Source of the DNA: an uncultured Victivallales bacterium
GTDB lineage: Bacteria; Verrucomicrobiota; Lentisphaeria; Victivallales; UBA1829
Assembly: GCA_934644965.1 (NCBI GenBank)
Contig: CAKUDG010000001.1
Coordinates: forward strand, 32,500-96,499
Reading direction: 5' to 3'
Length of the DNA stretch: 64,000 nt
Position numbers and translations under genes: made by a program. The notes beneath the pieces are model-generated. The model was not told the DNA's origin. It saw nothing but the letters and a program-made list of their open reading frames with translations, and ran no database searches. Shown one piece after another: positions 16,012 through 61,566 of this stretch. Position 1 is the first letter of the stretch. Each line of letters opens with the position of its first letter.

Positions 16012-16208
16012 CCGCCTTCTGTTTTTTTTGGGGGGGGTCTCCCGGAAAAAGGAGTTTCTCCATTTTTTTTAAGGAGGGGAAGAAGCCTCTTTCCCATCCT
16101 GTTCCGATTGTTTTTCCCTGCTGAACGTATTTCCCATTTTACAACCTGAGAAGTGTTTTCTCCGGAGTTGCATCCGGGACTTTTTTTCTGCCCGGCTGCT
16201 TATTTCTT

Positions 16209-43963: not shown

Positions 43964-44761
43964 TCAGAGTTTGCGGTATACTCTGACATAGTCGATTTCA
44001 AAATCCTTCGGATAAACGAGATCCGGATCCACATTGCCGATCCAGCCGGAATACTGGAAAAGAGCGAGCAGAATGAACATTTTTTCCTGAGGTGTGGGCC
44101 CCTTCCAGATTTTTATGACATTGCCGTCGAAATACCATCGGATACAGCCTTCCTCCCATTCCATGGCCCAGACATGGAAGTCGTTGGAAACATCGACGGG
44201 AAGGGGATGAAGGAAATGGGCGTCTTCTGTGAAATGAACGTTCAGGTCCACCTTGCTTTCCGTATCGGAAACATAGCGGCCCTGCTGCTCGAAGATGTCG
44301 ATTTCCAGGACGCCTTCACCGACGGTTTTCCTTCTTCCGTCAATGGTGTATTCCTGTTTGGCGGGATCAACCTGGTGAAGCCAGAAAGCGCTCAGAAGAC
44401 CCTCTCCGCGCGGAATCCGGCAGCGGACTTCAAAGAGGCCGTATTTCTGGGAAAATTTTTCCAGAATGCAGTACTGATCCGGGGTGGCGCCGATCCGGTG
44501 GTCGGATGTGGTGACACAGCTCACGCACTGATGACTCTTTCCCGGACGAAACGGAAGTGTTTCGGAAATACGCAGTTTCAGGAGACTGTCTTCGATCACG
44601 TAATGCGCATTGTGATCCACCCATCGCTGAGGAAGTCCGCAGCGCTTGAGGTATTCCACGCGCCCGGAACGATAGGCGGGATACCAGTAGATGTCGTTCA
44701 GCTGAGGACGGTCAAATTCATCATGGAACGTCAGTTCCCAGCCAGGTTTTTCCCAGTCCAT
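43964..44761 (-). CDS. Glycoside hydrolase family 16 (beta-glucanase/laminarinase-like)
   Basis: Catalytic 'EIDIFE' (ExDxxE), 'FHDEFD' and 'DFHVWAMEWEEGCIRWYFDG'. There is no signal peptide from the start 'MDWEKPGW'. Confidence 0.8.
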   Translation of the reverse strand: MDWEKPGWELTFHDEFDRPQLNDIYWYPAYRSGRVEYLKRCGLPQRWVDHNAHYVIEDSLLKLRISETLPFRPGKSHQCVSCVTTSDHRIGATPDQYCILEKFSQKYGLFEVRCRIPRGEGLLSAFWLHQVDPAKQEYTIDGRRKTVGEGVLEIDIFEQQGRYVSDTESKVDLNVHFTEDAHFLHPLPVDVSNDFHVWAMEWEEGCIRWYFDGNVIKIWKGPTPQEKMFILLALFQYSGWIGNVDPDLVYPKDFEIDYVRVYRKL

Positions 44762-45348
44762 TCTGTTTCTTCTCCCTGATTTCAAATTCAATGATTGCGT
44801 TCGCATGCCTTTCCCCATTTTTGTCTTTGCCATGCATCCTGAAGGAACGCATATTCTGCGGAATCCGCATGCGGTCCGATCCGGGTCGGCAGGAAGGGGG
44901 AGGAGAAAGCTCCGGGGTGCGTATCTTCCACTCCGGCAGTCCTGCAGAGGGAAAATGAGGATCCGTCCCCAATCATCTTCCGGATCATTTTTCATCTCCA
45001 TGACAGAACTTTTCAGGGAGTATAATTTCACAGAAGAAAAAGTCAATACTGATTTTGAAAATCGGACTAAAATCCTGAACTTCAGTCTTTCTCTTTTTCT
45101 CTCTCAGAATCCGAAGATGATTCCGTCTTTCTCTCTCTCCTCCGCCTTTTCCTTTTGCGCAACTACTTGCAGGCGATTCTGAAAATTTTCCTGTCATCGT
45201 TGCACTTCTGCTTTTTCCTCTGTACTTTTCCCGGACGATTCCCACCCGTGAATTCCTCCGATTCTCTCAGGAAGATTCCTCTTCCGATTGAAAATTGAAA
45301 AAAGCGTGCGGAAAAACCGGAAAAGGAATATTTTTATTTTTATAACAG

Positions 45349-45377
45349 TTGACTTTATAGCTGTTGTATTGTATAAT
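45349..45377 (+). promoter_or_regulatory. Near-consensus promoter TTGACT-17-TATAAT upstream of the MarR-headed cluster, with a flanking inverted repeat
   Basis: Read directly from the sequence. AACAG (45344-45348) and CTGTT (45361-45365) bracket the -35 box. The implied 5' UTR is about 145 nt. Confidence 0.5.
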
Positions 45378-45527
45378 TATCATCAAAACAGGGAAAGGAT
45401 CGGGCAGGAGCCGATGCTCCAGGAGAAGAATTCCCCTCTCCGGAGAAATCCTTCTCCAGCGCCGCTTCTTCTTCCATCTGAGTGAAGAAGAGGAGAAAAC
45501 ACAGGAAACACGGAAGGAGAACTGCAG

Positions 45528-45986
45528 ATGATTTTCAATTCAGACAACCGTTTTGAAGACAAAGAACACGAGGCGTTGATGGGACTCTGGTGGTCCGGAG
45601 TTCTCTTGAAACGGGAATCCAAAAAATTCTTCAAGGGACGAACCTTTTCCGAATCACAGTTCAACGTGCTGATGTCGCTGAAATATGCGGACCGGGATCT
45701 GTCGCAACAGGATCTGAGCCGGCGTCTTCTGGTGGACAAGTCCAATTTGACCGGTTTGATCGACACGCTGGAGGAACTGGATTTTGTCCGTCGGCGGAAG
45801 GAACCGCAGGACCGCCGTTTTCATCGGCTGGAACTGACGGAAAAAGGTAGGATGTTTCTACAAGGGATCGAACCGGCATACTGGGAGCTGGTCCATCGGA
45901 TCATGTCTGTCTTCAGGGAGGACGAAATCTGCCGGATAACCGAATACATGGTCCGGCTCCAGGAAGGACTGGAAAAAGATGAATGA
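45528..45986 (+). CDS. MarR-family transcriptional regulator
   Basis: wHTH 'LSQQDLSRRLLVDKSNLTGLIDTLEELDFVRRRKEPQDRRFHRLELTEKG'. The RBS GGAAGGAG precedes the ATG. Confidence 0.85.
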   Translation: MIFNSDNRFEDKEHEALMGLWWSGVLLKRESKKFFKGRTFSESQFNVLMSLKYADRDLSQQDLSRRLLVDKSNLTGLIDTLEELDFVRRRKEPQDRRFHRLELTEKGRMFLQGIEPAYWELVHRIMSVFREDEICRITEYMVRLQEGLEKDE

Positions 45987-47346
45987 ATTCTGCGTCAGGG
46001 AAGCGATGCGCCGCGTCGCCGCGAGTCTTGCCGCCGTCCCCGCAGCCCGATGCAGTTCTGAGACGATGCGCTTCGGGGATGGAAAACGAAGCAGTGCGGG
46101 AAAGAGTTCGGAAGCAACGGGAAAGGAAGGGAAGAACTTATTCATCGCACTTTTCCGAACTTTTGTTTTCCTCCGGCCTTCGGGAACGGAGGAATATCTG
46201 AATCCAGCTGGAGCGGAAAAAACGGCGGGGACTCCTTCCCTCCCGCGGAGGAAAGAGAGTCTGTGGAGCTTCCTTTACTATTATCTGCGTTCCATGCGTC
46301 TCTATTATGCGTTTGTGACGGGTTCCACCACAGCCGCCGGGATTCTTGCCGCCCATGTTGTTGAGCCTGTTCCGGGATCTACGGCGGAGGGTGGCTGCGG
46401 ATTTGCGTTTTTTTCACTGCCTGCAGTACGCGAGTGTCTTGCTCTGGTCATCGGATTCCTCGCATGGGGAGTGAATCAGATATTCAACGACTACGGAAAC
46501 CGGAAGGAGGATGCCAGGAATGCACCGGACCGGCCCATGGTGAACGGAAATCTGCCCGTGTTCCCGGCGCTGCTTTTATCGTGCGTTCTGATGCTTGTTT
46601 TTGCTGCGGCGATCTTCCTGGCGGCACCAGGAGCGTTGATCTTTCTCATTTGCGGGGCGCTTCTGAATCTTCTGTACAATTTCGGGAAGAAGATTCCGAT
46701 AGCGGGATGCGTACTTTACGGGCTTTCCATTTCCATGTGCTATTTTTTTGGTTTTTTTGCGGCCGGCGGGAGGAATTTCAATTTTTCCGGAGGAGGCGGA
46801 TACGGGATGGGCACATGGATTCCGGAAGGGATGATTTTCCCATGGATGATCTGCATCATTCTGCATGCGTCGATGTGCTATTTCAGCTGTTTCAAGGATA
46901 TGGAGGGTGACCGTGCGGTGGGAATACGGTCTATCCCGGTGATTTTTGGATACCGGAAGGCACTTCTGGGGGGAATGATTCTGGAAGGTCTGCTCCTTCT
47001 GAGCTTCGGAATCATTGCAGCTGCGGGTTTGCCGGGGGGAGCAGTATCCGGGGGGAAGGCGCCGGACGGCATGGAGGGGACGGCGGCCGCCGCCTCCGTA
47101 TGGATCGCTTTCTGCGCATGGGCGATAACGCTTCAGGAAGCGCTCCGGCTTCTGTTCCTTCTGAGGCGGAAGCGTTTGCATGAGGCGACCTGCGCGAACT
47201 GCCGGAACTGTGTTGCGCAAATGCTGCTGCTCTGCTGTCTCGGCATGGAAACGACATGGGAAAAACTGACCGTGCTTGCTGCGATTCCGTTTTCACTGAT
47301 GATGATTCAACTTCTTTTCGGGTGGTACGGAAATGAAAAGGAATAA
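45979..47346 (+). CDS. UbiA-superfamily prenyltransferase, ChlG/DGGGPS-like
   Basis: 'NQIFNDYGNRKEDARNAPDRPMVNG' and 'FKDMEGDRAVGIRSIPVIFG' match the two Asp-rich motifs of chlorophyll-synthase / digeranylgeranylglyceryl-phosphate-synthase-type enzymes. About 8-9 TM segments. The start is ambiguous (45979, 46006 or 46066). Confidence 0.8.
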   Translation: MNEFCVREAMRRVAASLAAVPAARCSSETMRFGDGKRSSAGKSSEATGKEGKNLFIALFRTFVFLRPSGTEEYLNPAGAEKTAGTPSLPRRKESLWSFLYYYLRSMRLYYAFVTGSTTAAGILAAHVVEPVPGSTAEGGCGFAFFSLPAVRECLALVIGFLAWGVNQIFNDYGNRKEDARNAPDRPMVNGNLPVFPALLLSCVLMLVFAAAIFLAAPGALIFLICGALLNLLYNFGKKIPIAGCVLYGLSISMCYFFGFFAAGGRNFNFSGGGGYGMGTWIPEGMIFPWMICIILHASMCYFSCFKDMEGDRAVGIRSIPVIFGYRKALLGGMILEGLLLLSFGIIAAAGLPGGAVSGGKAPDGMEGTAAAASVWIAFCAWAITLQEALRLLFLLRRKRLHEATCANCRNCVAQMLLLCCLGMETTWEKLTVLAAIPFSLMMIQLLFGWYGNEKE

Positions 47347-48673
47347 ATTTCTTACGGGGGCAGAAAAAGCGGCATTGTATTTGCGGATCTCGCTTGACTG
47401 CGCATGGCGTCTGAAGTCGCCGCGGACACTGTTCCGTGCGGCGGGATTCACGAAGGTGTTTTTCCGGCACAAGGTGCGCCGTCTGCCGGGGGGAAGGTAC
47501 AAGCTGGACTTCTACATGCCGGCCTATCCTTCGGACGCGTTTTTCAGGGCTATGGAAGACAAACTTCTCTGGCGTCCGCCGAGGCCGATCTCGGTGGTGC
47601 TTTCGATCACGAAGGCATGCGTCTGCCGCTGTCCGCACTGCTATCAGCGGCAGGATCCGGCGGAGGAACTCCAGCTGGACAGGCTCCTTCAAAACGTCCG
47701 AGAGCTCCGGGATTTCGGGATATCCGCCTGGGCCGTCGAAGGGGGAGAGCCGCTGCTGAAATTCGAGCGTCTGGCAGCGGTTCTCCGGGAACTTGCCGGA
47801 CAGGAAGTCTGGGTGAATTCCAACGGTTTTTCCGCAACGGACGAAAAAATTTCCATCATGTCGGAACTGGGCGTGACGGGCGTCATGAGTTCCATCCACT
47901 CCCCCGACCCGGAAACACACGATGCCTTCACCGGAGTCCCGGGCTCCCATGAACAGGCCCTGCTCTTTCTGGAAAAATGCCGCCGGAAAGGCATGCTCAC
48001 CGGATTCAATACCGTACTCGGGGATGAAGCCGTTCTTTCCGGAGGCATTGAAAAAATCATGGTCCTCGCCGAAGAACGGGAGGTGGACTATGTTCAGCTG
48101 ATCCATCCCAAACCGAGCGGACGGTGGCTCGGGAGAAATTTGGAAAGTGCTCTTTCCTCCGAAGCCGTCCAAAGGGCCTGCGAAGCGCAGATCCGATACA
48201 ATTCTGGGAAGGAAAAACACTCTCCGATCCTGACGGCGCAGGTTTTTGAGGAATCCCCGGAAATGCTCGGCTGCTGCGGAGGCGGAATCGACCGCTTTTA
48301 CATCGGAGCGGCGGGAGACGTTCAGCCATGCGAATTCGTCAATCTCTCTTTCGGCAATCTGAAGGACGTCTCATTCAGGACCGCCTTTGAAAGAATGCGC
48401 GAGGCCTTCCCAGTCCCCTGCTGCGAATGGATCTGCCGGACGCGCGCCCCTGAAATCGCCGCGGCGGCGGAGAAACTGGCAGAGGAACGGAACCATGCGC
48501 AAGCAGCTTGTAAAAGAGGAGAAAAAACAGATGCCCGGCCCCCCCAGGGAACGGAAAGCGGCAGGACTGTTCTTCCGCTCCCCTGGGAAAAGACACGTGA
48601 CCTCGTTGCGAAATGGAAAAAGCAAAGCGGCACCCCGACTCCGCTCTATCAGAAAATGGGGATTTACCGATGA
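47333..48673 (+). CDS. Radical SAM enzyme with a SPASM/twitch-like auxiliary Cys cluster
   Basis: 'CVCRCPHC' contains CxxxCxxC. The downstream Cys-rich region is 'LGCCGGGIDRFYIGAAGDVQPCEF....PVPCCEWICR'. The C-terminus is basic and low-complexity. Confidence 0.8.
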   Translation: MKRNKFLTGAEKAALYLRISLDCAWRLKSPRTLFRAAGFTKVFFRHKVRRLPGGRYKLDFYMPAYPSDAFFRAMEDKLLWRPPRPISVVLSITKACVCRCPHCYQRQDPAEELQLDRLLQNVRELRDFGISAWAVEGGEPLLKFERLAAVLRELAGQEVWVNSNGFSATDEKISIMSELGVTGVMSSIHSPDPETHDAFTGVPGSHEQALLFLEKCRRKGMLTGFNTVLGDEAVLSGGIEKIMVLAEEREVDYVQLIHPKPSGRWLGRNLESALSSEAVQRACEAQIRYNSGKEKHSPILTAQVFEESPEMLGCCGGGIDRFYIGAAGDVQPCEFVNLSFGNLKDVSFRTAFERMREAFPVPCCEWICRTRAPEIAAAAEKLAEERNHAQAACKRGEKTDARPPQGTESGRTVLPLPWEKTRDLVAKWKKQSGTPTPLYQKMGIYR

Positions 48674-49596
48674 AACGATATCTGATTCTGGTCAATCCCT
48701 CCTCCGGCGGGGGCAGGTCTCTGAGTCTGTGGGCGCGTTTTGCCCGGAGGCTTCCGAATTCGGAAAGCGTGATTCTGCACAGCATTGAGGAAGCCTCCGA
48801 ACGAGCGGAGGAGGCCGCGGAAAAGGGAACGGCGGACGCCGTCATCGCACTGGGGGGAGACGGAACCATCCACGCGGTCGCCAACGGTCTTCTCCGCAGT
48901 TCCCGCGGCGGCGGCAGCGACGGCGACGGAGCTTCCCTCCTTCCCCTCGGAGTCCTCTACGGCGGCACCAGTCCTGATTTCTGCCGCTTTCACGGAATTC
49001 CGCTGGATCCCGAAGCCGCGCTGGAAGTCATTCTTGCAGGGCATGCGGAAAGGGTTGAAGTTCTTCAGATTGAGCACAACGGGAAGATCCGGCGCGTTCT
49101 CTGCTCCTGCAATTTCGGGATGGGCGCGGATGTGGCGCAGCAGGCCAATACCCTGCGCCGTTTCTGCGGGGACCGGACGGGAACACTGCTCGCATTGATC
49201 CGGAATCTTCTGAAAAGTCCGGAATACGATTATATGCTCAACGGCCGTCCTCTGAAACACTGCAACCACCTGCTCATCACACGGATGCCGTACATCGCAG
49301 GAGGTCTGAAAATTGCGCTTCCGCCGCTGAAGGAAGAGGAATATCTGCTCTGGCATCTGCGGAATCATTCCTTTCTGAACTGGCTGGGACTTCTGGGGAA
49401 ATTCTACCGTGGAGCCCCCTGCGGAGAAAGTGCGGTCTGTTCGGGGATGCTGGAAATCGACACCCTCCCCCCCGGAGCTGACGGAGGAAAAATCGAATAT
49501 GACGGAGATCCCCGGGGAACACTCCCCGCAAGGATCTCTCCCTCGGAACGGAAACTTCTTCTTCTCAAACCAGGAACAAATGAGAGGCAGTCATGA
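48670..49596 (+). CDS. Diacylglycerol-kinase-fold lipid kinase (DAGK_cat / YegS-BmrU-like)
   Basis: 'YLILVNPSSGGGRS' and 'IALGGDGTIHAVANGL'. An ATGA overlap links it to the upstream gene. Confidence 0.8.
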   Translation: MKRYLILVNPSSGGGRSLSLWARFARRLPNSESVILHSIEEASERAEEAAEKGTADAVIALGGDGTIHAVANGLLRSSRGGGSDGDGASLLPLGVLYGGTSPDFCRFHGIPLDPEAALEVILAGHAERVEVLQIEHNGKIRRVLCSCNFGMGADVAQQANTLRRFCGDRTGTLLALIRNLLKSPEYDYMLNGRPLKHCNHLLITRMPYIAGGLKIALPPLKEEEYLLWHLRNHSFLNWLGLLGKFYRGAPCGESAVCSGMLEIDTLPPGADGGKIEYDGDPRGTLPARISPSERKLLLLKPGTNERQS

Positions 49597-50537
49597 ACGA
49601 ATCCCGGTATATCCGGCTCTTTTCCGGAATTCACGGAAGCACGCCCTATCTCGCGGACGCGGAAATCATGGCCCGTCCGGACGGATTTGCCTTGTTCTCC
49701 ATCGACAGTTTTTCCGAAGAGGAAGACTTCTTCCGGAACACTCCCCCCGGCATCATCGGGCACAACATGGCCGCCGCGGTCTGTTCCGACCTTCTGGCAT
49801 GCGGAGTCCGGCCGGAACTGCTGCTCCAGGCATGGAACATCGATGAATCACGGGGGGAGGACTACTACCGGAGGATCGCAGACGGCATTGAAGAAGTGCT
49901 GCGCCATTACAGAGCGTTCTCTCCCGGCGGCGACACGGGATCTGCAAAGCAGTGGAACTACACCGCTGCCGCAATCGCCCACAGCGCTTCCGCACCCGTG
50001 CGGCGCAGGACTTCCAGACGCGTTCCGTTCGATCTGTATCTTTCCGGCGGACTCGGGACAACGAATCTGGCAGTGTTCCTGGGCTCTCCGCTTCCGGAAA
50101 TCCCCCTGCGCGAGCCCGTGCCTCCGGACGCGCTCTTCGGAACCGACACCAGCGGAGGATTTTTCGATGCTCTGGAGAACTTCCGCCGTGTCAACCGCGG
50201 GATGAGACTCTGCATCGATCTGGAGCGGGTTCTTGCCCCGGAACTCCGCACGCAGTGCCCTCCGGGAATTTCCAGTGCGTATTTCACACTGATCGGAGGC
50301 GCGGGCGAATATGAACTGCTCTTCGCTGTCGAACAGGGGACGGAACTTCCCGGAATGATCCACATCGGGGAAGGCGATTTCAGAAAGGACGATGATCCTC
50401 GGAACGAGATCACCTTTCTGGAAGGGGGAAGCCCTCTTGGAAGCATGAAAACCCCTCCGCCGGATTACCGGGACATTCCCCCGGAACGATATCTGCAGGA
50501 AACCGGAAACTATTTCAAGGAGGTGCTGGAAGAATGA
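49593..50537 (+). CDS. AIR-synthase-related (PurM/ThiL/HypE-fold) ATP-utilising protein
   Basis: 'FSIDSFSEEEDFF...IGHNMAAAVCSDLLACGVRPELLL' fits the PurM-like N-domain pattern. There are ATGA overlaps at both ends. Confidence 0.65.
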   Translation: MNESRYIRLFSGIHGSTPYLADAEIMARPDGFALFSIDSFSEEEDFFRNTPPGIIGHNMAAAVCSDLLACGVRPELLLQAWNIDESRGEDYYRRIADGIEEVLRHYRAFSPGGDTGSAKQWNYTAAAIAHSASAPVRRRTSRRVPFDLYLSGGLGTTNLAVFLGSPLPEIPLREPVPPDALFGTDTSGGFFDALENFRRVNRGMRLCIDLERVLAPELRTQCPPGISSAYFTLIGGAGEYELLFAVEQGTELPGMIHIGEGDFRKDDDPRNEITFLEGGSPLGSMKTPPPDYRDIPPERYLQETGNYFKEVLEE

Positions 50538-51850
50538 CGAAATCCCTGTTTGAAAAATGTTTTGCATACGGTTCAGGAGGCATCGAAGAAAAGGCGGAAC
50601 TTCTGGAGAAGGAGCTCAAACGGAATCCGCCGTCGTACTACGAAGGGCTGCAGATGGTGCTGCTGGAAGGAGTGAAACCGGTCACGAAAGTCCGCACGCC
50701 CTCCGGAGAAGTCCGGGACATGCTGATGTTCGGGAGCAATTCCTTTCTGAATCTGAATCATCATCCCCGGGTGCTCGAAGCAGGACGCCGCGCCGCGGAA
50801 CGCTTCGGCTCCGGAAACGGATCGCCCCCGCTCTATGCCGGACAGACCGTGATCCATGAAGAACTGGAGGAGGAACTGGCCCGTTTCTGCGGGACGGAAG
50901 CGGCAGTCCTCTTTCCGGCGGGATACAGCGGGAATCTGGGCGTGCTTTCCGGACTCTGCCGGAGCGGAGACACCATCTGCTGCGACGCTGACAACCATGC
51001 CTCGCTTTTCGACGGAGTCCGTCTTTCGGGCGCCACTTTTCTTCCGTACCCCCATTTGAAGCCTCGCCGTCTGGAACAACGTCTGCTGCAGAGGGAGGCA
51101 TCCGACCACAGCCCGTCATCAGGCGGCCCCTCCCCCCTCTCCGGACACGGGGAGAAAACGGAAACGGGAAAAAATTCCGGCGGACTCCTGATCGTTTCGG
51201 ACGGAGTGTTTTCCATGGAAGGCAGTCTTGCTCCCGTGGATGAACTGGTCCGCCTGAAAGAACGCTTCGGAGCCTTCCTGATGATCGACGACGCACACGG
51301 ATTCTGGGCCGTCGGCCCCGACGGCGCCGGCACGGCCGCCTGTTTCGGACTCCGGGACAAAGTTGACCTGCACTACGGCACCTTCAGCAAAGCGCTGGGC
51401 CAGACGGGAGGATTCGCGGCAGGGAAAAAATCCGTCATCAACTATCTGCGCTATTATGCCAGAAGCTGTTTTTTTTCGAGCGGGATTGCGGCAGTTTCCG
51501 CGGCGGAGATTCTCGAATCCGTCAGAATCGTCCGGGAGGAGCCGGAACATCTGGAAAGGCTCCGCCGCAACCGGGACTTCTTCCAGAAGGAGCTCGAAGA
51601 CGCCGGATTCAACACCCTGAACAGCCGTTCGGCAATTCTGCCGCTTCTGGTCGGGGACGAGGAAAAACTCGGGCTGTTCCAGAAAGATCTCTTCCGCGCG
51701 GGGATCTTCTCCAATATCGGGACAACGCCCGCGGTGAGTGCGAGAAAGTGCCGTCTCCGGCTGAATGTCATGGCCACTCATTCGCGGGAACAGCTTGCGC
51801 GCGCGGCGGAAATTCTTCTCGAAATCGGGAAGAAATATGAAATAGTGTGA
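50534..51850 (+). CDS. Alpha-oxoamine synthase family PLP enzyme (Spt/BioF/Kbl/CqsA-like)
   Basis: 'FGSNSFLNLNHHPRV', 'AGYSGNLGVLSGL', 'DDAHGF' and the PLP-lysine context 'GTFSKALG'. It carries a roughly 35-aa Ser/Gly/Pro-rich insertion. Confidence 0.85.
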   Translation: MTKSLFEKCFAYGSGGIEEKAELLEKELKRNPPSYYEGLQMVLLEGVKPVTKVRTPSGEVRDMLMFGSNSFLNLNHHPRVLEAGRRAAERFGSGNGSPPLYAGQTVIHEELEEELARFCGTEAAVLFPAGYSGNLGVLSGLCRSGDTICCDADNHASLFDGVRLSGATFLPYPHLKPRRLEQRLLQREASDHSPSSGGPSPLSGHGEKTETGKNSGGLLIVSDGVFSMEGSLAPVDELVRLKERFGAFLMIDDAHGFWAVGPDGAGTAACFGLRDKVDLHYGTFSKALGQTGGFAAGKKSVINYLRYYARSCFFSSGIAAVSAAEILESVRIVREEPEHLERLRRNRDFFQKELEDAGFNTLNSRSAILPLLVGDEEKLGLFQKDLFRAGIFSNIGTTPAVSARKCRLRLNVMATHSREQLARAAEILLEIGKKYEIV

Positions 51851-51985
51851 TCAGGGGAGAGCAGATCAGAGAAATTTTGTGATTTTTTGATTCTGCCATT
51901 AGAGCATTTTGTCGTCCGCTCCTGCTTCCGGCACGGGCACAGAGAGTTCATCCACAGCACACATCTTCATTTTCATTCTGGAGAA

Positions 51986-52011
51986 GGAAAAAGAGAAAGG
52001 AAAAAGAGAAA
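51986..52011. repeat. Purine-rich 13-bp tandem duplication (GGAAAAAGAGAAA x2) immediately upstream of the SDR RBS
   Basis: Read directly from the sequence. It is followed by GGAG and the ATG at 52025. Confidence 0.8.
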
Positions 52012-52024
52012 GGAGTTCCTTGCC

Positions 52025-52993
52025 ATGAATCGGGTTCTCATTACCGGAGCGGGGGGCTATATCGGATCCAACGCGGCTCTGTATTTTCTGCAAAAAGGCT
52101 GCCGCGTCACGGGAATGATTCACCGGGAAGCGGCGCCGCGGCGTCTGGAAGGCACCGGGATCGAACTGGAAAAGGCGGAATTGTGCGATCCAGGCTCGCT
52201 GGAACGGCTCTTTGATCACAGGACCTACGACTTTGTGATCCATATTGCCGCCCGCGCCGGCGACACGGGAAGGGACGAAGTGTTCCGGAAAGTGAATTAT
52301 GAAGCCGTCCGGCAGCTTGCACTCCTGAGCATGAAACACCATGTGAAACGCTTCGTCTACCTTTCCACTTCAGACGTCTACGGGCTGCACGACTTCCATG
52401 GGGAAGGCGAGGACGATCTTCCCCTGGACCATTCCGCCCGTCATCCATACCCGAAATACAAAATTCTTTCCGAGGAATGGCTTCGCGCGAATCTTCCGCA
52501 GGAACGTTTCTCCTGCGTTCGTCCCTGCGTGGTCTGGGGGAACGGGGACAGCACCATCACTCCGAGAGCAATCGCCTTTCTGAAACGTTCCCCCTTCGTC
52601 TTTCACTTCGGGACCTGGAAAGGGGAGAACCGCTGGCCGCTTGCGCATGTGGAAAATGTCTGCCGGACTCTTTTCGCCGCGATGATCCTGCCGGAAGCAG
52701 GCGGGAGGGGCGTCACCGTTCTCGACAGCAGGCGGACCTCGCTCCGGGAGTTCTACCATGCAGTCGCGGAGAAATATCTGCCGGGGAAAACGCTCCGGGA
52801 AATTTCTCTTCCGCTCTGGAGCATTCTTCCGGCGGCATGGTTTTCCAGCACATTCTCCGGGGACAAGGCGCTCTTCGATCCCACGCTCTACTCTCTTGCC
52901 ACCATCACGCATCATCTGGATTTCAGCAACGCCCGGATGCTCGAATGGCTGAGAAAGGCGGGAACGGAAGAAGAAAAAGACGGCACTTTCTGA
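52025..52993 (+). CDS. NAD-dependent epimerase/dehydratase-family (extended SDR) protein
   Basis: 'VLITGAGGYIGSN' Rossmann motif and 'YPKYK' (YxxxK). Confidence 0.8.
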   Translation: MNRVLITGAGGYIGSNAALYFLQKGCRVTGMIHREAAPRRLEGTGIELEKAELCDPGSLERLFDHRTYDFVIHIAARAGDTGRDEVFRKVNYEAVRQLALLSMKHHVKRFVYLSTSDVYGLHDFHGEGEDDLPLDHSARHPYPKYKILSEEWLRANLPQERFSCVRPCVVWGNGDSTITPRAIAFLKRSPFVFHFGTWKGENRWPLAHVENVCRTLFAAMILPEAGGRGVTVLDSRRTSLREFYHAVAEKYLPGKTLREISLPLWSILPAAWFSSTFSGDKALFDPTLYSLATITHHLDFSNARMLEWLRKAGTEEEKDGTF

Positions 52994-53067
52994 ACAACAG
53001 GCGCAGTCTCCGGAAATTTCCGGAATTTTCCGGGAGAATGTTCAAGAGTCAGGAGAAACGCTTCTTT

Positions 53068-56000
53068 TTACAGAGCAGCGGTCTTCTTCCGGATCCGGGA
53101 ATCGAAGAGTTCGCGGATCTTTCTCAGAGTGCGGAACAGCAGATGACGCCGGGGCTTCGCCGTGTCATGCACGAAAATGAAATAGAGCGCCGGAATCACA
53201 TACAAAGTCAGGAACGAGGCGATCGTGAGTCCGCCGACGACGCCCATCCCGCAGCTGGAACGCAGTTCCGACCCCAGACCCGTCCCGAGCGCCATGGGAA
53301 GCATCCCCGCGACAGACGCGATACTCGTCATCACAATCGGGCGGAATTTGGACTGAGTCGCCATCAGCATGGCCTTGTGAGTCGTCACGCCGGACTTCAC
53401 AAGCGTGGCGCATTCATCCATGATCAGAATGGCGTTGTTCACCACGATACCGATCATCATCACACCGCCGAGCAGGCCCATCATGGACATGGACATGCCC
53501 GTTGCCCAGAGCGTCACATACATCCCGAGGAAGCCGAGCGGCACCGTGAACATGATCAGGAAAGGACGCGTCCAGGATTCCATGATGGCGGCGATCAGCA
53601 GATACGTCAGGACCGTGGCGAGCAGAATCACCTGCAGAAATTCCGTTGCGGTCTCGTTCATGAGTTCCACGTTTCCGCTCATGCGGACACCATATCCGGG
53701 AGGGAGGGCCTCCTGAGCCATTTTCCCGATCTGTTCGGAAACGGGGCCGAGAGCCATTCCGGGGGCGGTGTTGGCATAGAGCCACATGGTCCGGACCTTG
53801 TCATAACGGTTGACGACAACCGGACGGGTGTCCTCGGTAATTTCGGCAAGGGCTTCGGCGCCGAGGGGATTGTTGTCCTTGACGGCGGGAGAGGCCTGGC
53901 GGAGCTGTTCTTCACCATATTCCTTCTGGTTTTTGACGCGGATGTCGAAGGTGCGGGCTCCGGAGCGGTAGTCACCGACTTCAATGCCGTCGAGAGCCCC
54001 CAGAAGATATTCGTAGAGCTCGTTTGCCGACATGTCGAGATTCTGCAGCACGGTTCTGCGTGGCGTGATGTTGATATTCGGTTTCCGTTCGCGCCGGCTG
54101 GAGTCAAGGTCCCGCGTGATTCCGAGTGCGGGAAGGTTTTCCATCACCTTCATTTCGGCCTGTTCCAGGACTTCCAGATCGGTGCCGTTCATGACGCAGC
54201 GGATTTCCGCGCCGCTGCCGCCGAAGGTGGCGGGAATGGAAAGGGTGACGCGGCAGTTGTCCAGATAGGAGAGTTCGTCACGGAGCATGGCCTGAAGGGC
54301 GTAGATGGATTCCTCGCGTTCAAATTTGTCGGTGGTGCGCAGATTGATCTGGCCGATGTAGACGGCGGAGCTGACCTGTCCGCTCCCCCCGTCGGAATCG
54401 CCGACGGAAATGGACATCCCGCGGATGAAATCGAATTTTTTCAGATGATCCGCCGCTTCCAGAATCAGTTTGTTGGTAGTCTCAAGATTATAATTGGTCG
54501 GGAACTCGAATTTGATGCGGATTTCCCCCTGGTCGCAGAAGGGAAGGAAGGAGAGTCCGACCTGGGGCACAATCCAGAGGACGGTCCCGAGAGAAAGCAG
54601 AATCACCGCAAGCATCAGGGACTTCGGATGGCGTGAAGTCCATTCGATGCTTCTGTCGAATTTTCGGCAGAGCCAGTCGTATCCGGTGTCCCAGGGCAGG
54701 AAGAGGCGCTGGAGGAAGGATTTCTCCTGAAGTCCGGAATGACTTTTCTTCTTCAGGAGCACGCACGCCAGAATCGGAGTCAGAGTGAAGCTGATGAAAA
54801 GCGACACCAGGGTTGCGCCGACCATCACGCCTGCGAAAGGCACCATCATCTGCCCGATGCGGCTGTTCATCATCATGACGGGGACAAAAACCACCACATT
54901 GGTCAGAGCGCTGGCCGAAACGGCCGCGATGACTTCCCCCGTCCCGTGCTCCGCGGCATTCCGGATGGATTCGCCCCGGTCCAGATGCTTGAAGATGTTT
55001 TCGATCACCACGATGGAGTTCGTCACCAGCACGCCCACGGAACAGCCCAGGGAAAGAAGGGTCATGATGTTGAAGGAATACTGGAAATACTCCATGACCG
55101 CGAAGGTCACGATCACCGAAATCGGCATCGAAATCATCACGATGAAAGTGGAACGCGGTTCATGCAGGAAGAGGAAGAGCAGCACGGCGGTCAGAATGAT
55201 TCCGGTGATGATGCTGCTCCAGGCGTCGTCGACGGAGGCCTGAATGAATGCGCCCGAATCGGTGAACCAGACGAGTTTCATCCCGGTGGGCAGTTCGCCG
55301 TTCCGGACCATGGCGTCGAAACGCTCTCGAATGCCGCGGATGACTTCAATGGCGTTGGCTTCGCCTTTCTTGACAATGCGGAAACGGGCGGCGGGTTCAC
55401 CGTTCACATAGGCTTTGCTGCGGACTTCGCGGCTCATGAACTTGACTTCCGCAACGTCCCGCAGATAGATGCGCTTGCCTTTGAATTTGCCGACTTCGAG
55501 GGAGCGGATCTGTTCAAAATCCTTGAAGTCGCCGTCGAAGGTGACGTTCTTTTCCATCCGGTCGAACTGAATTCTGCCGAGAGGCTCGCGGATGTTGTTT
55601 TCCCGGAGCTTGTTCACGACGTCGTTGATGGAAAGGTTCATGGCGGTCAGCTTTGCGCGGTCGAGGAGCACATGGATCTGCATTTCGTTGGCGCCGTAGA
55701 CGCGGACTTCACCGACTCCGGGAACGGAGGAGAAACGGTCCGCAATCACATCATCGGCGTAGTCGTAAAGATCGTCCTGTGTGCGGTCGCCGACGAGAAA
55801 GGCCTGGACGACTGTGGTGGCGTTGGTGTCGATTTTCCGGATTGTCGGCTCATCGGCACCGTCGGGGAGATTCTCCCGGATGCGGTTCAGGGCCTCCCGG
55901 ATGTCGGTCGCGGCGACATCCACATCAATGCCCATATTGAATTCCAGCTGAATCCGGGCCTCGTCCTCGATGGAAACGCTGGTGATGTGTTTGATTCCGT

Positions 56001-56223
56001 CGAGAGAGGAAACCGCGTCTTCGATTCTCTTGGCGATTTCCACTTCAATTTCCATCGGGCTGGCGCCCTGATATTCGCAGCGGACCAGCACCACGGGCAC
56101 TTCCATGTTCGGGAGAAGGTCGATGCTGATTTCCGGATAGGAATTCACTCCGATCATGACCAGAATGATAATCAGCGCCGTCATCGCGATCGGACGCTGG
56201 ACAGACCATTTGCTTAAAAACAT
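53068..56223 (-). CDS. RND efflux transporter permease (AcrB/HAE1-like)
   Basis: 1051 aa and 12 TM segments with two large periplasmic loops. The start 'MFLSKWSVQRPIAMTALIIILV' is typical. Confidence 0.9.
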   Translation of the reverse strand: MFLSKWSVQRPIAMTALIIILVMIGVNSYPEISIDLLPNMEVPVVLVRCEYQGASPMEIEVEIAKRIEDAVSSLDGIKHITSVSIEDEARIQLEFNMGIDVDVAATDIREALNRIRENLPDGADEPTIRKIDTNATTVVQAFLVGDRTQDDLYDYADDVIADRFSSVPGVGEVRVYGANEMQIHVLLDRAKLTAMNLSINDVVNKLRENNIREPLGRIQFDRMEKNVTFDGDFKDFEQIRSLEVGKFKGKRIYLRDVAEVKFMSREVRSKAYVNGEPAARFRIVKKGEANAIEVIRGIRERFDAMVRNGELPTGMKLVWFTDSGAFIQASVDDAWSSIITGIILTAVLLFLFLHEPRSTFIVMISMPISVIVTFAVMEYFQYSFNIMTLLSLGCSVGVLVTNSIVVIENIFKHLDRGESIRNAAEHGTGEVIAAVSASALTNVVVFVPVMMMNSRIGQMMVPFAGVMVGATLVSLFISFTLTPILACVLLKKKSHSGLQEKSFLQRLFLPWDTGYDWLCRKFDRSIEWTSRHPKSLMLAVILLSLGTVLWIVPQVGLSFLPFCDQGEIRIKFEFPTNYNLETTNKLILEAADHLKKFDFIRGMSISVGDSDGGSGQVSSAVYIGQINLRTTDKFEREESIYALQAMLRDELSYLDNCRVTLSIPATFGGSGAEIRCVMNGTDLEVLEQAEMKVMENLPALGITRDLDSSRRERKPNINITPRRTVLQNLDMSANELYEYLLGALDGIEVGDYRSGARTFDIRVKNQKEYGEEQLRQASPAVKDNNPLGAEALAEITEDTRPVVVNRYDKVRTMWLYANTAPGMALGPVSEQIGKMAQEALPPGYGVRMSGNVELMNETATEFLQVILLATVLTYLLIAAIMESWTRPFLIMFTVPLGFLGMYVTLWATGMSMSMMGLLGGVMMIGIVVNNAILIMDECATLVKSGVTTHKAMLMATQSKFRPIVMTSIASVAGMLPMALGTGLGSELRSSCGMGVVGGLTIASFLTLYVIPALYFIFVHDTAKPRRHLLFRTLRKIRELFDSRIRKKTAAL

Positions 56224-56261
56224 GCGGACTTTTCCTCCTTCATCATTACAGTTGATCGGTC

Positions 56262-57446
56262 TCAGTCTTCTTCATTGGCGATGCGGAGAAGCGAACCATT
56301 GTTGACGAAGGTCTGCCCGGTCACGACGAAACGTTCCCCGAGAAGTCCGGAAGCATTGACGACTTCACAGTATTTCCCGTCCACGATCCCGCGCACGACG
56401 TCGAAACTCTTTGCCCGGTTCCCGGAATCGACGGCATAGACGATGTAACGGTCATTGGCGCGCAGAAGCAGCGCATCGACAGGCAGCCCGTAGGCTTCCT
56501 TTTCCTCAAGGATGATGTTCATGTCGCAGAGCGTCCCGCTCACGAGACGCGTCCCCGGGGGAACCAGCGCCTTCATCTTGAATGTGCGGCTTTCCGGATC
56601 AATGCTGGGAGCCTTGTAGGTGATGACGCCCTTCCCCTTGATCTGACCGTCAAGGGAAAATTCCACCGGGGTTTTCCCCGCCTGAATCAGATCGTAGTAG
56701 ACCGAACTGATGTAACAGATCACTTCCAGATTCTTCTGATTTTCCAGTTTCAGAATGTTCTGTCCTGCGGAGACATATTCATTTTCCTCCACATATTTAT
56801 CCACCACGATGCAGTCGAACGGAGCCACGAGAACGGAATCCGCCAGATTCTTCTGCGCAATCACCAGATTCCCCTGGGCCTGCTTCAGCTGAGCCTCGGC
56901 ATTGGTGATCGCGGCCTGCGCTGCTTTGACTTCGGTCTGCGCCTTCTTATAGGCGGTCTCATAGGATTCAAAATCCGCCTGGCTGGTCACCTTGGAACGC
57001 CAGAGGCTCAGATAACGTTCATAGTCCACTCTTGCTTTCCGACCTGAGATCTCCGCATTTTCCAGAGCGATTTTTGAACTTTCCAGTTCCGCCTGCTTGA
57101 CTTTGATTTCATCTTCGCAGACCGTCACCTGATTTTTGAGGATCTGGCGGTCAATTCCGAAGAGGGTGTCCCCCTTCTTCCTCCGATCTCCCTCATCGAC
57201 TTTGAGCAGTTCCAGCGTCCCGCTGATCTTGGCGGAAATGGTGGCGTACTCCACCGGATAGACCGTCCCCTGAACGGGAATCTGTCTGCGGAAAACCCGC
57301 TTTTTAAGCGGTTCCAGCGTGACGCGGGTTTCCCGTTCCCCGACTTTCTTCGAGTCATCCTTTGAACATCCGCTCCCAGTCGTCAGCGTAAAGATCAGAA
57401 TCCCAGCCAGGACAAATGAAACATACACTCCATGGTACTTCTTCAT
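56262..57446 (-). CDS. RND efflux periplasmic adaptor (membrane fusion protein, HlyD family)
   Basis: Lipoprotein-like 'LTTGSGC' N-terminus, a coiled-coil hairpin region and beta-barrel domains. It lies directly upstream of the RND permease. Confidence 0.85.
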   Translation of the reverse strand: MKKYHGVYVSFVLAGILIFTLTTGSGCSKDDSKKVGERETRVTLEPLKKRVFRRQIPVQGTVYPVEYATISAKISGTLELLKVDEGDRRKKGDTLFGIDRQILKNQVTVCEDEIKVKQAELESSKIALENAEISGRKARVDYERYLSLWRSKVTSQADFESYETAYKKAQTEVKAAQAAITNAEAQLKQAQGNLVIAQKNLADSVLVAPFDCIVVDKYVEENEYVSAGQNILKLENQKNLEVICYISSVYYDLIQAGKTPVEFSLDGQIKGKGVITYKAPSIDPESRTFKMKALVPPGTRLVSGTLCDMNIILEEKEAYGLPVDALLLRANDRYIVYAVDSGNRAKSFDVVRGIVDGKYCEVVNASGLLGERFVVTGQTFVNNGSLLRIANEED

Positions 57447-57618
57447 GCGCTTGTCTTCCTTCTCTCTCCGGAAAAAATTCCGGAACAGTCTCTCGTATTT
57501 CCTGTATTCCATACTTTCATTGTATGGCTTGTTGGACAGCGCAAGATACCGCCGGGCCGCTCAAGTGCAACAGTCCTGACAAAATTTTGACAAAATACTG
57601 ATTTCAGTTCGACAAAGT

Positions 57619-59448: not shown

Positions 59449-59452
59449 GGAT

Positions 59453-60151
59453 TCATTCCCCGGAAATCCGATAGCCTACGCCACGGATGGTTTCAATGTG
59501 ATCGGACCAGTCGCCGAGTTTCTTGCGGAGATTGACCATGTGCATGTCGATGGCACGGGCGGTCACGGAATAATTGTCGCCCTTCACTTCGCGGATGATC
59601 TGGTTCCGGGTGAAGACACGCCCGGGATTCGCGGCAAGAAGGGCGAGTGTTTTGAATTCGTCGGCGGTCAGCATGAGATTTTGTCCGCCCAGAGTCGCAT
59701 GATAGGTCAGGAGATCCATGGACAGGGCGCCGAGAAGAATGATGCCCGGAGAATCCTCAGAACTTTTCATCCGGGAATCCTTCTTCCGGAGCTGAACAGC
59801 GATCCGGGCGGCAAGAACTTTGCTGCTGTAGGGTTTGACTATGTAATCGTCCGCACCCATTTCCAGTCCGAGGACAACGTCGTTTTCCTCGCCTTTGGCC
59901 GTCAGCATGATGATCGGGATCCCGGAGAGTGCGGGGGTGTTCTTCAGATTCCGGCAGACCGTCAGACCATCGATATCGGGAAGCATGATGTCGAGGAGGA
60001 TCAGGTCCGGAATCAGGCGGGCGGCCATGGCCAGGCCCTCCTTCCCGTCAGACGCGCAGTAGACTTGCTGGAATCCGTTCATATTCAGATTCATTTTCGT
60101 CATGTCGCAAATGGAGGCGTCGTCTTCGATCATCAGAATTTTCGGGTTCAT
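59453..60151 (-). CDS. OmpR-family response regulator
   Basis: Receiver 'ILMIEDD...DLILLDIMLPDIDG' and a winged-helix output 'RVFTRNQI...VTARAIDMHMVNLRKKL..IETIRGVGY'. Confidence 0.9.
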   Translation of the reverse strand: MNPKILMIEDDASICDMTKMNLNMNGFQQVYCASDGKEGLAMAARLIPDLILLDIMLPDIDGLTVCRNLKNTPALSGIPIIMLTAKGEENDVVLGLEMGADDYIVKPYSSKVLAARIAVQLRKKDSRMKSSEDSPGIILLGALSMDLLTYHATLGGQNLMLTADEFKTLALLAANPGRVFTRNQIIREVKGDNYSVTARAIDMHMVNLRKKLGDWSDHIETIRGVGYRISGE

Positions 60152-60286
60152 GGCACGGCCTTTTTCCTGTCTGTCTTTCTTTCCCCCTTCTTCCTCATCT
60201 TTCTATTCTCCTCATTTCATTTTCTCCGCCTCCCGTTTTCTCCCGGTGTGCTTCGCGGAAGCGACGAAGGAGAGGGAGAAAAAGAA

Positions 60287-61153: not shown

Positions 61154-61566
61154 AAGGCAGCTCCTTCTTCTTCGTCGTCTGATGTTGAACCGTTCCCCGG
61201 GAAAAGGTGTCCGCGGCATAGGGCTGTTCCTGCGCGGCGGAGGTCTTTTCCCGGACATCCGGAGAAATCCGGCTTCCGCGTGCGGAATATAACATGAGTG
61301 GAAAAAGAATTCAAATCCCTGTTTTCTCAATACATTTCCTCTGCCGGACACACGGGGAAGGAGCCGGAAGCGGCATCATCACCCGCCGCTCCGGCGCAAA
61401 ACGACGCGGGAAGGAAGGGAAAGGCTCCGGCGCAGGGGAAGATTTCCCGGATTCAGATCTCGCCATGAAATTGTTTTCTTCCGCCGTTTTCGGGATCCAC
61501 AGTTATCCCTCATTTCCGTTGTCCGCGCGGACTGCGGCAGCGAATCCGGCTTCAGGCCCAGACGGA

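Follow-up and report, generated by a model that had tools for sequence, protein, structure and literature searches.

Archaeal ether lipids are built by GGGPS and then by DGGGPS, a prenyltransferase of the UbiA family, after which the product is tailored by the radical S-adenosylmethionine (SAM) enzymes Tes/GDGT-MAS and GrsA/B. Here we describe a bacterial gene cassette that sets a UbiA-type and a radical SAM enzyme beside enzymes of sphingolipid type. It lies in a 64-kb window, by which we mean the whole stretch of DNA analyzed (64,000 nucleotides from an uncultured Victivallales bacterium), and it was first noticed in an examination of the letters made without database searches, called below the sequence-only reading. 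That reading stated, correctly, that Caulobacter combines serine palmitoyltransferase (Spt) with a reductase and a ceramide kinase. The Caulobacter system comprises Spt, an acyl carrier protein (ACP), an acyl-ACP synthetase, the epimerase/dehydrogenase-type reductase CC_1164 and an N-acyltransferase (PMC9386255). Its ceramide kinase is CpgB, which has an LCB5/DAG-kinase domain; a bacterial dihydrosphingosine kinase, dhSphK1, is also known, and the bacterial lipid substrates documented for the DAGK_cat family are diacylglycerol, phosphatidylglycerol, ceramide and dihydrosphingosine (PMC10331486). Spt-like genes have been counted in metagenome-assembled genomes (MAGs) of Planctomycetota and Verrucomicrobiota, without the context of the cassette (PMC11334938).

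The cassette consists of genes for a UbiA-superfamily prenyltransferase, a radical SAM enzyme, a DAGK-fold lipid kinase, an AIRS-domain protein that resembles ThiL, an alpha-oxoamine synthase (AONS) and an extended short-chain dehydrogenase/reductase (SDR), preceded in the window by a MarR-type regulatory gene. We suggest, tentatively and with a confidence a little short of even, that it may make a prenylated, phosphorylated sphingoid-type membrane lipid; the substrates, the order of steps and the product are proposed by analogy with characterized enzymes. The suggestion starts from seven genes with recognizable domains and intact catalytic motifs, from their arrangement as an operon, and from a deeply conserved gene order, a natural fusion of the UbiA and radical SAM enzymes, the substitution of an Spt-type enzyme in one lineage, the lack of ceramide-synthase-type genes in window and loci, and a conserved operator.

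According to this proposal, the AONS would join a long-chain acyl thioester to an amino acid, L-serine being the likeliest, and the SDR would reduce the resulting 3-keto long-chain base to a sphinganine-type amino alcohol. The DAGK-fold kinase would phosphorylate the 1-hydroxyl, for which the bacterial dihydrosphingosine and ceramide kinases are precedents, and the ChlG/DGGGPS-type UbiA enzyme would place an isoprenoid chain on a free oxygen (or nitrogen) of the phospho-amino-alcohol. The isoprenoid would then be the second hydrophobic chain, replacing the N-acyl chain of ceramide, in a manner comparable to the action of DGGGPS on geranylgeranylglyceryl phosphate. The radical SAM enzyme, coupled or fused to UbiA, would tailor the prenylated lipid, and the ThiL-like enzyme would spend ATP on turning the phosphate monoester into a diphosphate, which would be the head group or its activated form.

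A profile scan with the AIRS-like protein over 185,579 species genomes yielded 71 loci; the protein has 264 homologs, all from MAGs of the Planctomycetes-Verrucomicrobia-Chlamydiae (PVC) group. Approximately 30 of the loci come from Lentisphaerae/Victivallales (including a MAG labelled Victivallis vadensis), 16 from Kiritimatiellia and 10 from other Verrucomicrobiota, and the remainder are from Planctomycetota (4; Thermoguttaceae and Planctomycetaceae), Armatimonadia (1) and unclassified genomes (10). The carriers, some 70 species of anaerobic bacteria, were sampled chiefly from rumen, gut and faeces, and also from digesters, groundwater, springs and sediment. When the window proteins were compared with these loci by tblastn, the order UbiA, radical SAM, DAGK-type kinase, ThiL-like, (AONS), SDR was found on the same strand nearly everywhere. 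In loci whose flanks are long enough to tell, the neighbors of the AIRS-like gene include the kinase in 46 of 48, the radical SAM gene in 42 of 44, UbiA in 37 of 39, the SDR in 40 of 47 and the AONS in 26 of 31; the lipid cassette is its context in 69 of the 71 loci. Clustering of all flanking open reading frames (ORFs) gave no further widely recurrent neighbor, and the cassette sits in unrelated neighborhoods. The conservation of gene order in relatives, which the sequence-only reading had named as one of its tests, thus extends over 71 loci in several phyla between flanks that are not conserved, and chance juxtaposition is rejected by synteny in so many loci with otherwise unrelated surroundings. 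Three MAGs each contributed two separate cassette-bearing contigs (L043/L047, L018/L061 and L040/L058), which could be duplicated cassettes or mixed strains in the bin.

Three architectures can be distinguished. Type A, to which the window conforms, is UbiA-rSAM-DAGK-AIRS-AONS-SDR (rSAM, radical SAM enzyme). Type B, found mostly in Kiritimatiellia, has a different AONS immediately upstream of UbiA, and genes for AAA_14/DUF4143 ATPases are often inserted between the kinase and the AIRS-like gene. Type C is divergent (30-45% identity) and has an old yellow enzyme (OYE)-type flavin reductase between the AIRS-like protein and the AONS.

The AONS provides the link to sphingoid bases. Scored against NCBIfam models, the window enzyme is almost equidistant from Spt of the CFB type (320.4 bits), bioF (317.5) and Kbl (289), all below cutoff, with CqsA (181 bits) and ALAS (191 bits) weaker; the three Spt models, SerpalmtaseCFB, BetaP and AlphaP, gave 320.4, 261.7 and 199.3 bits against cutoffs of 640, 500 and 670, respectively. 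Its best solved relative is the serine palmitoyltransferase (SPT) of Sphingobacterium multivorum (260 bits), and CapB is among the solved relatives at 191-201 bits. The type-B AONS of Kiritimatiellia scores 500 bits with the CFB-type Spt model, near but below the cutoff of 640, against 341 with bioF; it matches the characterized S. multivorum SPT at 408 bits (approximately 50% identity), Sphingomonas SPT at 262 and Kbl at 233. Identity to the Spt of E. coli BL21 is 30% for the window AONS and 36% for the type-B enzyme. The two cassette AONS types share only 33-36% identity, whereas the other cassette proteins of those loci share 44-62% with those of the window, and the type-B gene occupies a different position, directly upstream of UbiA. 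This combination of low identity and different position indicates that the type-B AONS is a non-orthologous replacement, functionally equivalent to the cassette-native enzyme, as judged from these comparisons. Because a clear serine-palmitoyltransferase homolog takes the place of the AONS in Kiritimatiellia, the cassette is tied to sphingoid-base synthesis. The prenylated sphingoid-type lipid offered by the sequence-only reading is strengthened by this substitution, while its chemical structure is still something we infer. A role of the AONS as BioF in biotin synthesis was rejected: the score of 317.5 compares with a TIGR00858 cutoff of 426.45, no bio genes accompany it, and locus L041 has a separate BioW-BioF fusion (pimeloyl-CoA synthetase plus 8-amino-7-oxononanoate synthase, 665 aa, at 14053-16050 on the minus strand) about 2 kb from the cassette, so that biotin synthesis is not the task of the AONS in the cassette.

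The UbiA protein is a multi-pass membrane protein with two Asp-rich motifs, as is proper to its superfamily. Both motifs are conserved in 48 sequences (motif 1, [N/S]D-xx-[D/N/G]-xx-ED...NAPxRP; motif 2, KD-xx-GD), the middle Asp of motif 1 being variable and replaced by Asn in the window. Among solved proteins it is closest to chlorophyll synthase (E 4e-8) and then to DGGGPS (E 1e-4); ChlG and DGGGPS prenylate oxygen nucleophiles. Scores with the specific subfamilies all fall below cutoff: 42.9 versus 296 for PRK12882 (DGGGPS), 53.9 versus 313 for PRK07566 (ChlG) and 32.4 versus 436 for TIGR02056.

The radical SAM enzyme has a conserved N-terminal domain of about 85 aa and the canonical CX3CX2C motif of its superfamily (C96-X3-C100-X2-C103), invariant in 24 sequences. 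A SPASM domain had been assigned to it, but its score with the Pfam SPASM model is 19.9 against a gathering cutoff of 21.5, and the assignment does not stand. Of the C-terminal cysteines, no more than three or four are conserved (C314, C333, C368 and usually C363), so that the C-terminus looks like a putative single auxiliary cluster of the twitch-like kind, not a full SPASM domain, in agreement with the sub-threshold score. Peptide maturases (SkfB, PqqE) are among the closest solved relatives; however, neither the seven-cysteine SPASM motif nor an adjacent precursor peptide, the marks of a maturase of ribosomally synthesized and post-translationally modified peptides (RiPPs), was found, and a RiPP locus was rejected on the lack of any conserved small precursor ORF in the cassette and the sub-threshold SPASM score. 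We also rejected a viperin-type (pVip) defense system: the PADLOC match of 32.5 bits covers the radical SAM core only (residues 88-228), and no other cassette protein matches.

Among 507 radical SAM homologs examined for fusions, at least 17 of the clusters formed at 90% identity consist of one chain, 665-753 aa long, in which PF01040 precedes PF04055. These are natural UbiA-radical SAM fusions; in one (P0175), residues 3-224 align to the window UbiA and residues 302-715 to the window radical SAM enzyme. Therefore, by this Rosetta-stone link, the two enzymes almost certainly act consecutively on one membrane-bound substrate.

The kinase is nearest to the YegS/BmrU-type lipid kinase models of NCBIfam, all below cutoff, and its solved relatives, YegS, DgkB and sphingosine kinase 1, are distant. 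The fifth protein, called AIR-synthase-like in the sequence-only reading, does carry the AIRS domain and is more specifically of the ThiL-like fold. Its AlphaFold2 model (pLDDT 92.3) finds A. aeolicus ThiL as best Foldseek match (TM 0.71-0.72, E 3e-21), ahead of HypE, SelD and PurL, and the family-invariant D38 and D66 align to the Mg-ATP-binding D43 and D71 of ThiL. Against the TIGR01379 ThiL model it scores only 60.8 bits (cutoff 184.15), and sequence E-values with PDB entries are about 1e-3. This score, the absence of thi genes and the cassette context led us to reject a true ThiL. Public records often label the protein 'thiamine monophosphate kinase'; because the ThiL-model score is so far below cutoff, that label is probably wrong for the cassette protein. 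A stand-alone ThiL-like gene, 49% identical to that of the window, occurs in L034 (9995-14489) with the other cassette genes absent within 10 kb, one gene from dxs (DXP synthase), which belongs to isoprenoid and thiamine precursor metabolism.

The SDR has OleD 2-alkyl-3-oxoalkanoate reductase (76.6 bits) and HpnA (67.9) as its closest NCBIfam models, both far below cutoff, and is weakly nearest to the lipid 3-oxo reductases OleD, HpnA and 3-beta-hydroxysteroid dehydrogenase (3-beta-HSD); we presume, from these similarities, that it may be a 3-keto reductase. For the ceramide pathway, the homologous genes of E. coli BL21(DE3) served as reference sequences. The epimerase/dehydratase fold that had been likened to that of sphingolipid producers is indeed the same (both proteins are PF01370), but identity to the CerR-type 'epi' protein of E. 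coli BL21 is 24% over 186 aa (pairwise E 2e-8), and orthology with CerR was not upheld.

The region is a real, tightly packed six-enzyme operon. All seven ORFs run in the same direction, and their coordinates and Pfam domains agree with those given in the sequence-only reading (Table 1). Of the chained overlaps of 8, 14, 4, 4 and 4 nt which that reading described, the last four hold: 14 nt between UbiA and the radical SAM gene, and a 4-nt ATGA at each of the junctions rSAM/DAGK, DAGK/AIRS and AIRS/AONS. A spacer of 174 nt separates the AONS from the SDR. The 8-nt overlap between MarR and UbiA, in contrast, depends on an UbiA start at ATG 45979. All 47 of 47 homologous UbiA proteins start just N-terminal of a conserved FLYYYLRSMRLYY helix, which in the window comes after an in-frame CTG at 46261 with GGAGGA at 46247-46252, 9 nt upstream of that CTG; the 94 codons between ATG 45979 and about 46261 are an open frame with no conservation among UbiA homologs. 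Because the homologs begin some 94 codons downstream, the 8-nt overlap, and hence the predicted translational coupling of MarR to UbiA, is doubtful. Public gene calls place the start at ATG 46294, which cuts into the conserved helix.

Table 1. Cassette genes and associated sequence elements, in window positions
Feature	Position	Strand	Evidence and remarks
Sigma-70-type promoter TTGACT-17-TATAAT	45349..45377	+	11/12 positions match
Palindromic operator AACAGTTG-ACTTTA-TAGCTGTT, presumed MarR site	45344..45365	.	overlaps -35 hexamer
MarR-family regulator, 152 aa	45528..45986	+	MarR, PF01047, 52.9 bits; lineage-specific addition
UbiA-superfamily membrane prenyltransferase, ChlG/DGGGPS-like	45979..47346 (conserved part from ~46261)	+	UbiA, PF01040, 86.4 bits
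Radical SAM enzyme, twitch-like C-terminal domain	47333..48673	+	Radical_SAM, PF04055, 68.8 bits
Soluble DAGK_cat-fold lipid kinase, GGDG motif	48670..49596	+	DAGK_cat, PF00781, 82.6 bits
PurM-superfamily ATP-dependent enzyme, ThiL-like fold; signature gene of the cassette	49593..50537	+	AIRS, PF00586, 44.2 bits
Alpha-oxoamine synthase (AONS), pyridoxal phosphate (PLP), TFSK lysine motif	50534..51850	+	Aminotran_1_2, PF00155, 156.9 bits
13-nt tandem repeat, GGAAAAAGAGAAA x2, in AONS-SDR spacer	51986..52011	+	directly upstream of SDR ribosome-binding site
Extended SDR, epimerase/3-beta-HSD fold, TGxxGxxG and YxxxK motifs	52025..52993	+	Epimerase, PF01370, 106.7 bits

Because no convincing internal plus-strand promoter or terminator was found from MarR to SDR, terminator-like matches being fewer than in shuffled controls, the simplest model is a single transcript from about 45384 to about 53000, derepressed by a ligand. 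GC content and skew across the window are unremarkable, on which ground a recent horizontal island was rejected, and none of the cassette genes has a paralog in the 64-kb window. The tandem repeat in the AONS-SDR spacer differs in copy number between conspecific strains (L001-L006, at about 11450-11490): two intact copies of GGAAAAAGAGAAA are present in the window, L001 and L003, one in L002, in which the spacer is 13 nt shorter, and point variants in L004-L006. This variation could modulate SDR translation or spacing. Three enzymes of the window lineage also contain low-complexity inserts rich in Gly, Ser, Pro and Lys that their homologs lack, at residues ~185-215 of the AONS, at residues ~399-426 of the radical SAM enzyme and as Gly-rich loops in UbiA.

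The near-consensus promoter that the sequence-only reading placed upstream of MarR proved to be the best-scoring site in the 8.3 kb scanned (45000-53300). The inverted repeat reported at its -35 box is weak when judged on the window alone, with perfect arms of 5 nt (unreported at >=6 nt) and two mismatches in the right arm. It is nevertheless conserved in relatives: an 8-6-8 palindrome, AACAGTTG-N6-CAACTGTT, lies over the -35 box TTGACT in all six MarR-bearing relatives, one clade (L079, L011, L013) has the compensatory form AATAGTTG-N6-CAACTATT (C>T / G>A), and the position of the promoter and both hexamers are kept upstream of MarR in L008, L009, L025, L079, L011 and L013. Only one copy of the motif is present in the 64-kb window, where 0.00 are expected by chance. 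Since it is conserved with compensatory changes in 7 loci, the inverted repeat over the -35 box is real, and it is the presumed operator. A winged-helix protein encoded behind a palindrome over its own promoter is the layout of a MarR-type autoregulated operon; binding by MarR is predicted, and the position over the -35 box would fit repression by occlusion, as expected. MarR had been taken for the head of the cluster, a view that must be given up: the gene turned up in only 4 of the 35 loci that extend far enough upstream to show it, and MarR with its operator-promoter is confined to the clade of the window and one neighboring clade. Judged by this distribution, it is a lineage add-on to the cassette. 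Directly upstream of the cassette promoter, the window has a GH16 glycoside hydrolase gene (43964-45046, minus strand), also present in L001, L003 and L006; a stretch of about 1.2 kb with this gene is absent from L002, L004 and L005, a conspecific indel next to the operator and promoter.

Several points weigh against a prenylated sphingoid phospholipid. When the family-specific (equivalog) cutoffs of NCBIfam were applied to every cassette protein, none reached any of them, and all substrate assignments are accordingly by analogy; this result, together with full-text literature searches that turned up neither the cassette nor a prenylated sphingoid lipid, agrees with the statement of the sequence-only reading that no characterized pathway has this gene set. 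The near-equal AONS scores (320/317/289 bits) favor no one amino acid or acyl substrate, and the type-C AONS leans to Kbl/BioF (394 versus 361). The SDR is not a CerR ortholog and has, by the comparison given above, only a generic extended-SDR relationship to it. Fold and PDB profile searches with the radical SAM enzyme were non-diagnostic and indicated no reaction, returning generic twitch/SPASM enzymes only: its AlphaFold2 model (pLDDT 87.5) matched SkfB, BlsE, SuiB, DesII, anSME, MoaA and viperin in Foldseek at TM <=0.5. The cassette comes with no gene for a polyprenyl-diphosphate synthase. We know of no precedent for a UbiA enzyme that prenylates a sphingoid phosphate, nor of one for a ThiL-like enzyme that acts on a lipid phosphate. 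Finally, among loci with ample flanks, 5 of 31 lack the AONS and 7 of 47 lack the SDR; for that reason, the four-gene core UbiA-rSAM-DAGK-ThiL-like may receive its substrate from elsewhere. The boldest form of the proposal, a hybrid lipid class with a sphingoid backbone made by an Spt-like enzyme as in bacteria and eukaryotes, an isoprenoid ether-linked by UbiA in the manner of archaea, remodelling by the radical SAM enzyme and a diphosphate head made by the ThiL-like enzyme, is in our judgment doubtful, though a possibility to be taken seriously.

The two ATP-dependent enzymes could instead supply the prenyl donor, the DAGK-fold kinase making a prenyl phosphate and the ThiL-like enzyme the prenyl diphosphate that UbiA would transfer to an unphosphorylated amino alcohol; the product class would be unchanged. 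The only chemistry known for ThiL, the closest fold, is the conversion of a phosphate monoester to a diphosphate, UbiA enzymes need a diphosphate donor that no synthase in the cassette provides, and the UbiA-rSAM-DAGK-ThiL-like genes are the tightest and most invariant block, with the AONS and SDR more peripheral. Against this, no DAGK_cat-family kinase is known to phosphorylate prenols, and the carriers already make polyprenyl diphosphates de novo for the cell wall. The stand-alone homolog in L034, one gene from dxs as the first gene of the methylerythritol phosphate (MEP) pathway, would suit donor supply, but it is a single case and dxs is also thiamine-related. Many carriers come from the phytol-rich rumen or gut, and the logic resembles the salvage of phytol in plants by two membrane CTP-dependent kinases, the phytol kinase VTE5 and the phytyl-phosphate kinase VTE6, whose product goes to the chlorophyll or tocopherol synthases; carriers from groundwater, springs and digesters do not share that setting. 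On balance, we think donor supply unlikely. A diffusible signal or specialized metabolite was the other product that the gene set might suggest: an AONS resembling CqsA or LqsA would yield an alpha-amino or alpha-hydroxy ketone of short or medium chain length, to be reduced, phosphorylated, prenylated and sensed by MarR. The AONS family does include the autoinducer synthases CqsA and LqsA, the window lineage has a MarR-type ligand-responsive repressor with a conserved operator, and an RND efflux pump and a two-component system adjoin the cassette. CqsA, however, is the weakest AONS model (181 versus 320 bits for Spt), MarR is found in so few loci, the RND and two-component neighbors are not conserved, and the replacement enzyme in Kiritimatiellia is of true Spt type; moreover, UbiA is a membrane enzyme, the kinase has the fold of lipid kinases and the SDR is of a lipid type, all of which points to a hydrophobic membrane substrate. 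We consider such a signal improbable.

That the locus is an ordinary ceramide or ceramide-phosphate locus, its ceramide synthase encoded elsewhere and its UbiA, radical SAM and ThiL-like genes mere passengers from quinone, cofactor and thiamine metabolism, seems very improbable, even though a Spt-like AONS, an epimerase-fold reductase and a DAGK-fold kinase are common to Caulobacter and E. coli BL21. The supposed passengers are the most conserved genes, overlapped or fused with each other and with the kinase; the ThiL-like protein is far from its model (60.8 versus 184 bits), no other quinone or thiamine genes stand alongside, bCerS, AcpR and AasR are missing from every locus, and the SDR is not orthologous to CerR. 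We find it scarcely credible that the genes serve a tetrapyrrole, quinone or cofactor pathway (the AONS resembling ALA synthase, UbiA resembling ChlG or heme-O synthase, and the radical SAM enzyme resembling AhbD or NirJ), or a RiPP or viperin-like system. There are sub-threshold matches to ChlG (53.9 bits), AhbD (79), ALAS (191) and pVip (32), and SkfB and PqqE are among the radical SAM relatives, but these matches are far below cutoffs and reflect generic cores only; HemB/C/D, Mqn and precursor-peptide genes and any conserved small ORF are lacking, the auxiliary cysteines number three or four, and the kinases, the SDR and the Spt-type AONS would be left unexplained. A tetrapyrrole or quinone pathway was rejected for these generic matches and the want of companion genes. 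The prenylated, phosphorylated sphingoid-type lipid is the product that we prefer.

Other genes accompany the cassette in some lineages. A gene for a 2x[4Fe-4S]-ferredoxin-nitroreductase fusion follows the SDR in 16 type A/B loci, and an OYE gene is present in 7 loci; the window has neither. These accessory flavin reductases could fit C=C reduction or electron supply. In L045 (12668-13354), L046, L048 and L049 (Victivallaceae/Lentisphaeria), a GDSL-family lipase/acylhydrolase gene comes after the ferredoxin-nitroreductase at the end of the cassette and may be a lipid-related accessory. A small clade (L079, L080, L011, L013, L010) has six extra translationally coupled operon genes (L079 5515-9091 and 14247-18187), encoding a 779-aa secreted protein, a 183-aa lipoprotein-like protein, proteins of 230 and 398 aa and two multi-pass membrane proteins (319 and 277 aa). 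None has a Pfam or NCBIfam match, and their restriction to one clade makes them uninformative for the core; they may help to export or assemble the product.

The AAA_14/DUF4143 ATPase genes were judged unrelated to the pathway. Distinct genes of this kind (381-467 aa) occur at the one DAGK/AIRS junction in L023, L028, L030, L033, L035, L037, L039 and L040, which suggests a recurrent insertion hot spot for possibly selfish ATPase genes. On the other side of the window cassette, and convergent with it, the stretch 53068-61200 (minus strand) encodes a resistance-nodulation-division (RND) efflux pump (ACR_tran, 1051 aa) and its membrane-fusion protein. The stretch also encodes a two-component pair (HisKA sensor kinase, OmpR-type response regulator) and a protein of metallo-beta-lactamase fold, which matches Anti-Pycsar Apyc1 as well. 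The RND pump, two-component and metallo-beta-lactamase genes are not conserved beside the cassette in other species.

Sphingoid-base enzymes side by side with a prenyltransferase of archaeal type and a radical SAM enzyme lead one to expect a new class of lipids, and the six genes give a handle on it. If the hybrid lipid exists, it would be a third route to two-chain amphiphiles beside glycerolipids and ceramides, and with it a ThiL-family enzyme and a UbiA-radical SAM fusion would for the first time have lipid substrates. That natural fusion is of interest to radical lipid chemistry, and a protein family now mis-annotated as 'thiamine monophosphate kinase' would gain a likely role. Sphingolipids of gut commensals are known to modulate host immunity and outer-membrane integrity, and the carriers of the cassette (Victivallales, Kiritimatiellia and relatives), whose lipids are essentially unstudied, are widespread in the guts of humans, ruminants and other animals and in anoxic sites. 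Isoprenoid ether chemistry in Bacteria would bear on the 'lipid divide', and the product is a candidate source of new lipid biomarkers for anaerobic PVC bacteria.

Set against the bacterial ceramide pathway of Caulobacter, E. coli BL21 and P. gingivalis, the cassette shares an AONS-family enzyme, an extended-SDR reductase, a soluble DAGK_cat kinase and clustering in an operon, and one of its variants has a true Spt-type enzyme. The DAGK_cat domain and GGDG motif match the fold of the ceramide-pathway kinase at the family level only. The cassette differs in having no N-acylation step and in adding the UbiA, radical SAM and ThiL-like enzymes, which to our knowledge are part of no known sphingolipid pathway. 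No homolog of bCerS (YghO), AcpR or AasR was found in the 64-kb window or in approximately 80 loci (each +/-10 kb; YghO by tblastn, E <=1e-3). What defines a canonical ceramide pathway, namely an AONS above the Spt cutoff, bCerS, a CerR ortholog and a dedicated ACP with acyl-ACP synthetase, is thus missing; with no bCerS, ACP or acyl-ACP synthetase in window or loci and no conserved small ORF, this is neither a canonical sphingolipid nor a RiPP locus, as had been argued from the letters.

Archaeal ether-lipid synthesis is alike in that a DGGGPS/ChlG-like UbiA enzyme presumably O-prenylates a one-chain phosphorylated backbone and a radical SAM enzyme follows. It differs in its backbone, which is glycerol-1-phosphate, whereas that of the cassette would be an AONS-made amino alcohol, and the cassette has no GGGPS, G1PDH or CarS. 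No specific relation of the cassette radical SAM enzyme to the solved GDGT-MAS could be detected, and we know of no UbiA-radical SAM fusion in archaea. With chlorophyll synthesis by ChlG/BchG and phytol salvage, the cassette shares ChlG as its nearest solved UbiA relative, and two ATP-dependent enzymes beside a prenyltransferase recall the steps from alcohol to phosphate to diphosphate; the cassette kinases, in contrast, belong to the unrelated DAGK_cat and PurM/ThiL families, and there is no tetrapyrrole context. ThiL itself is similar in fold (TM 0.71-0.72) and in the N-terminal Mg-ATP Asp residues, which are kept, yet identity is only about 20%, the D-x-S-D-G motif of ThiL is D-T-S-G-G in the cassette protein, and no thi genes are nearby. 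The capnine/sulfonolipid pathway consists of CapA, the AONS CapB and the reductase CapC, with no kinases, UbiA or radical SAM enzyme. It resembles the cassette in using an AONS and an NAD(P)H reductase for a long-chain base of the amino alcohol type, but CapB is a weaker match than Spt and the cassette has no cysteate synthase. The cassette matches no studied pathway, and we class it as a variant of bacterial sphingolipid-type biosynthesis.

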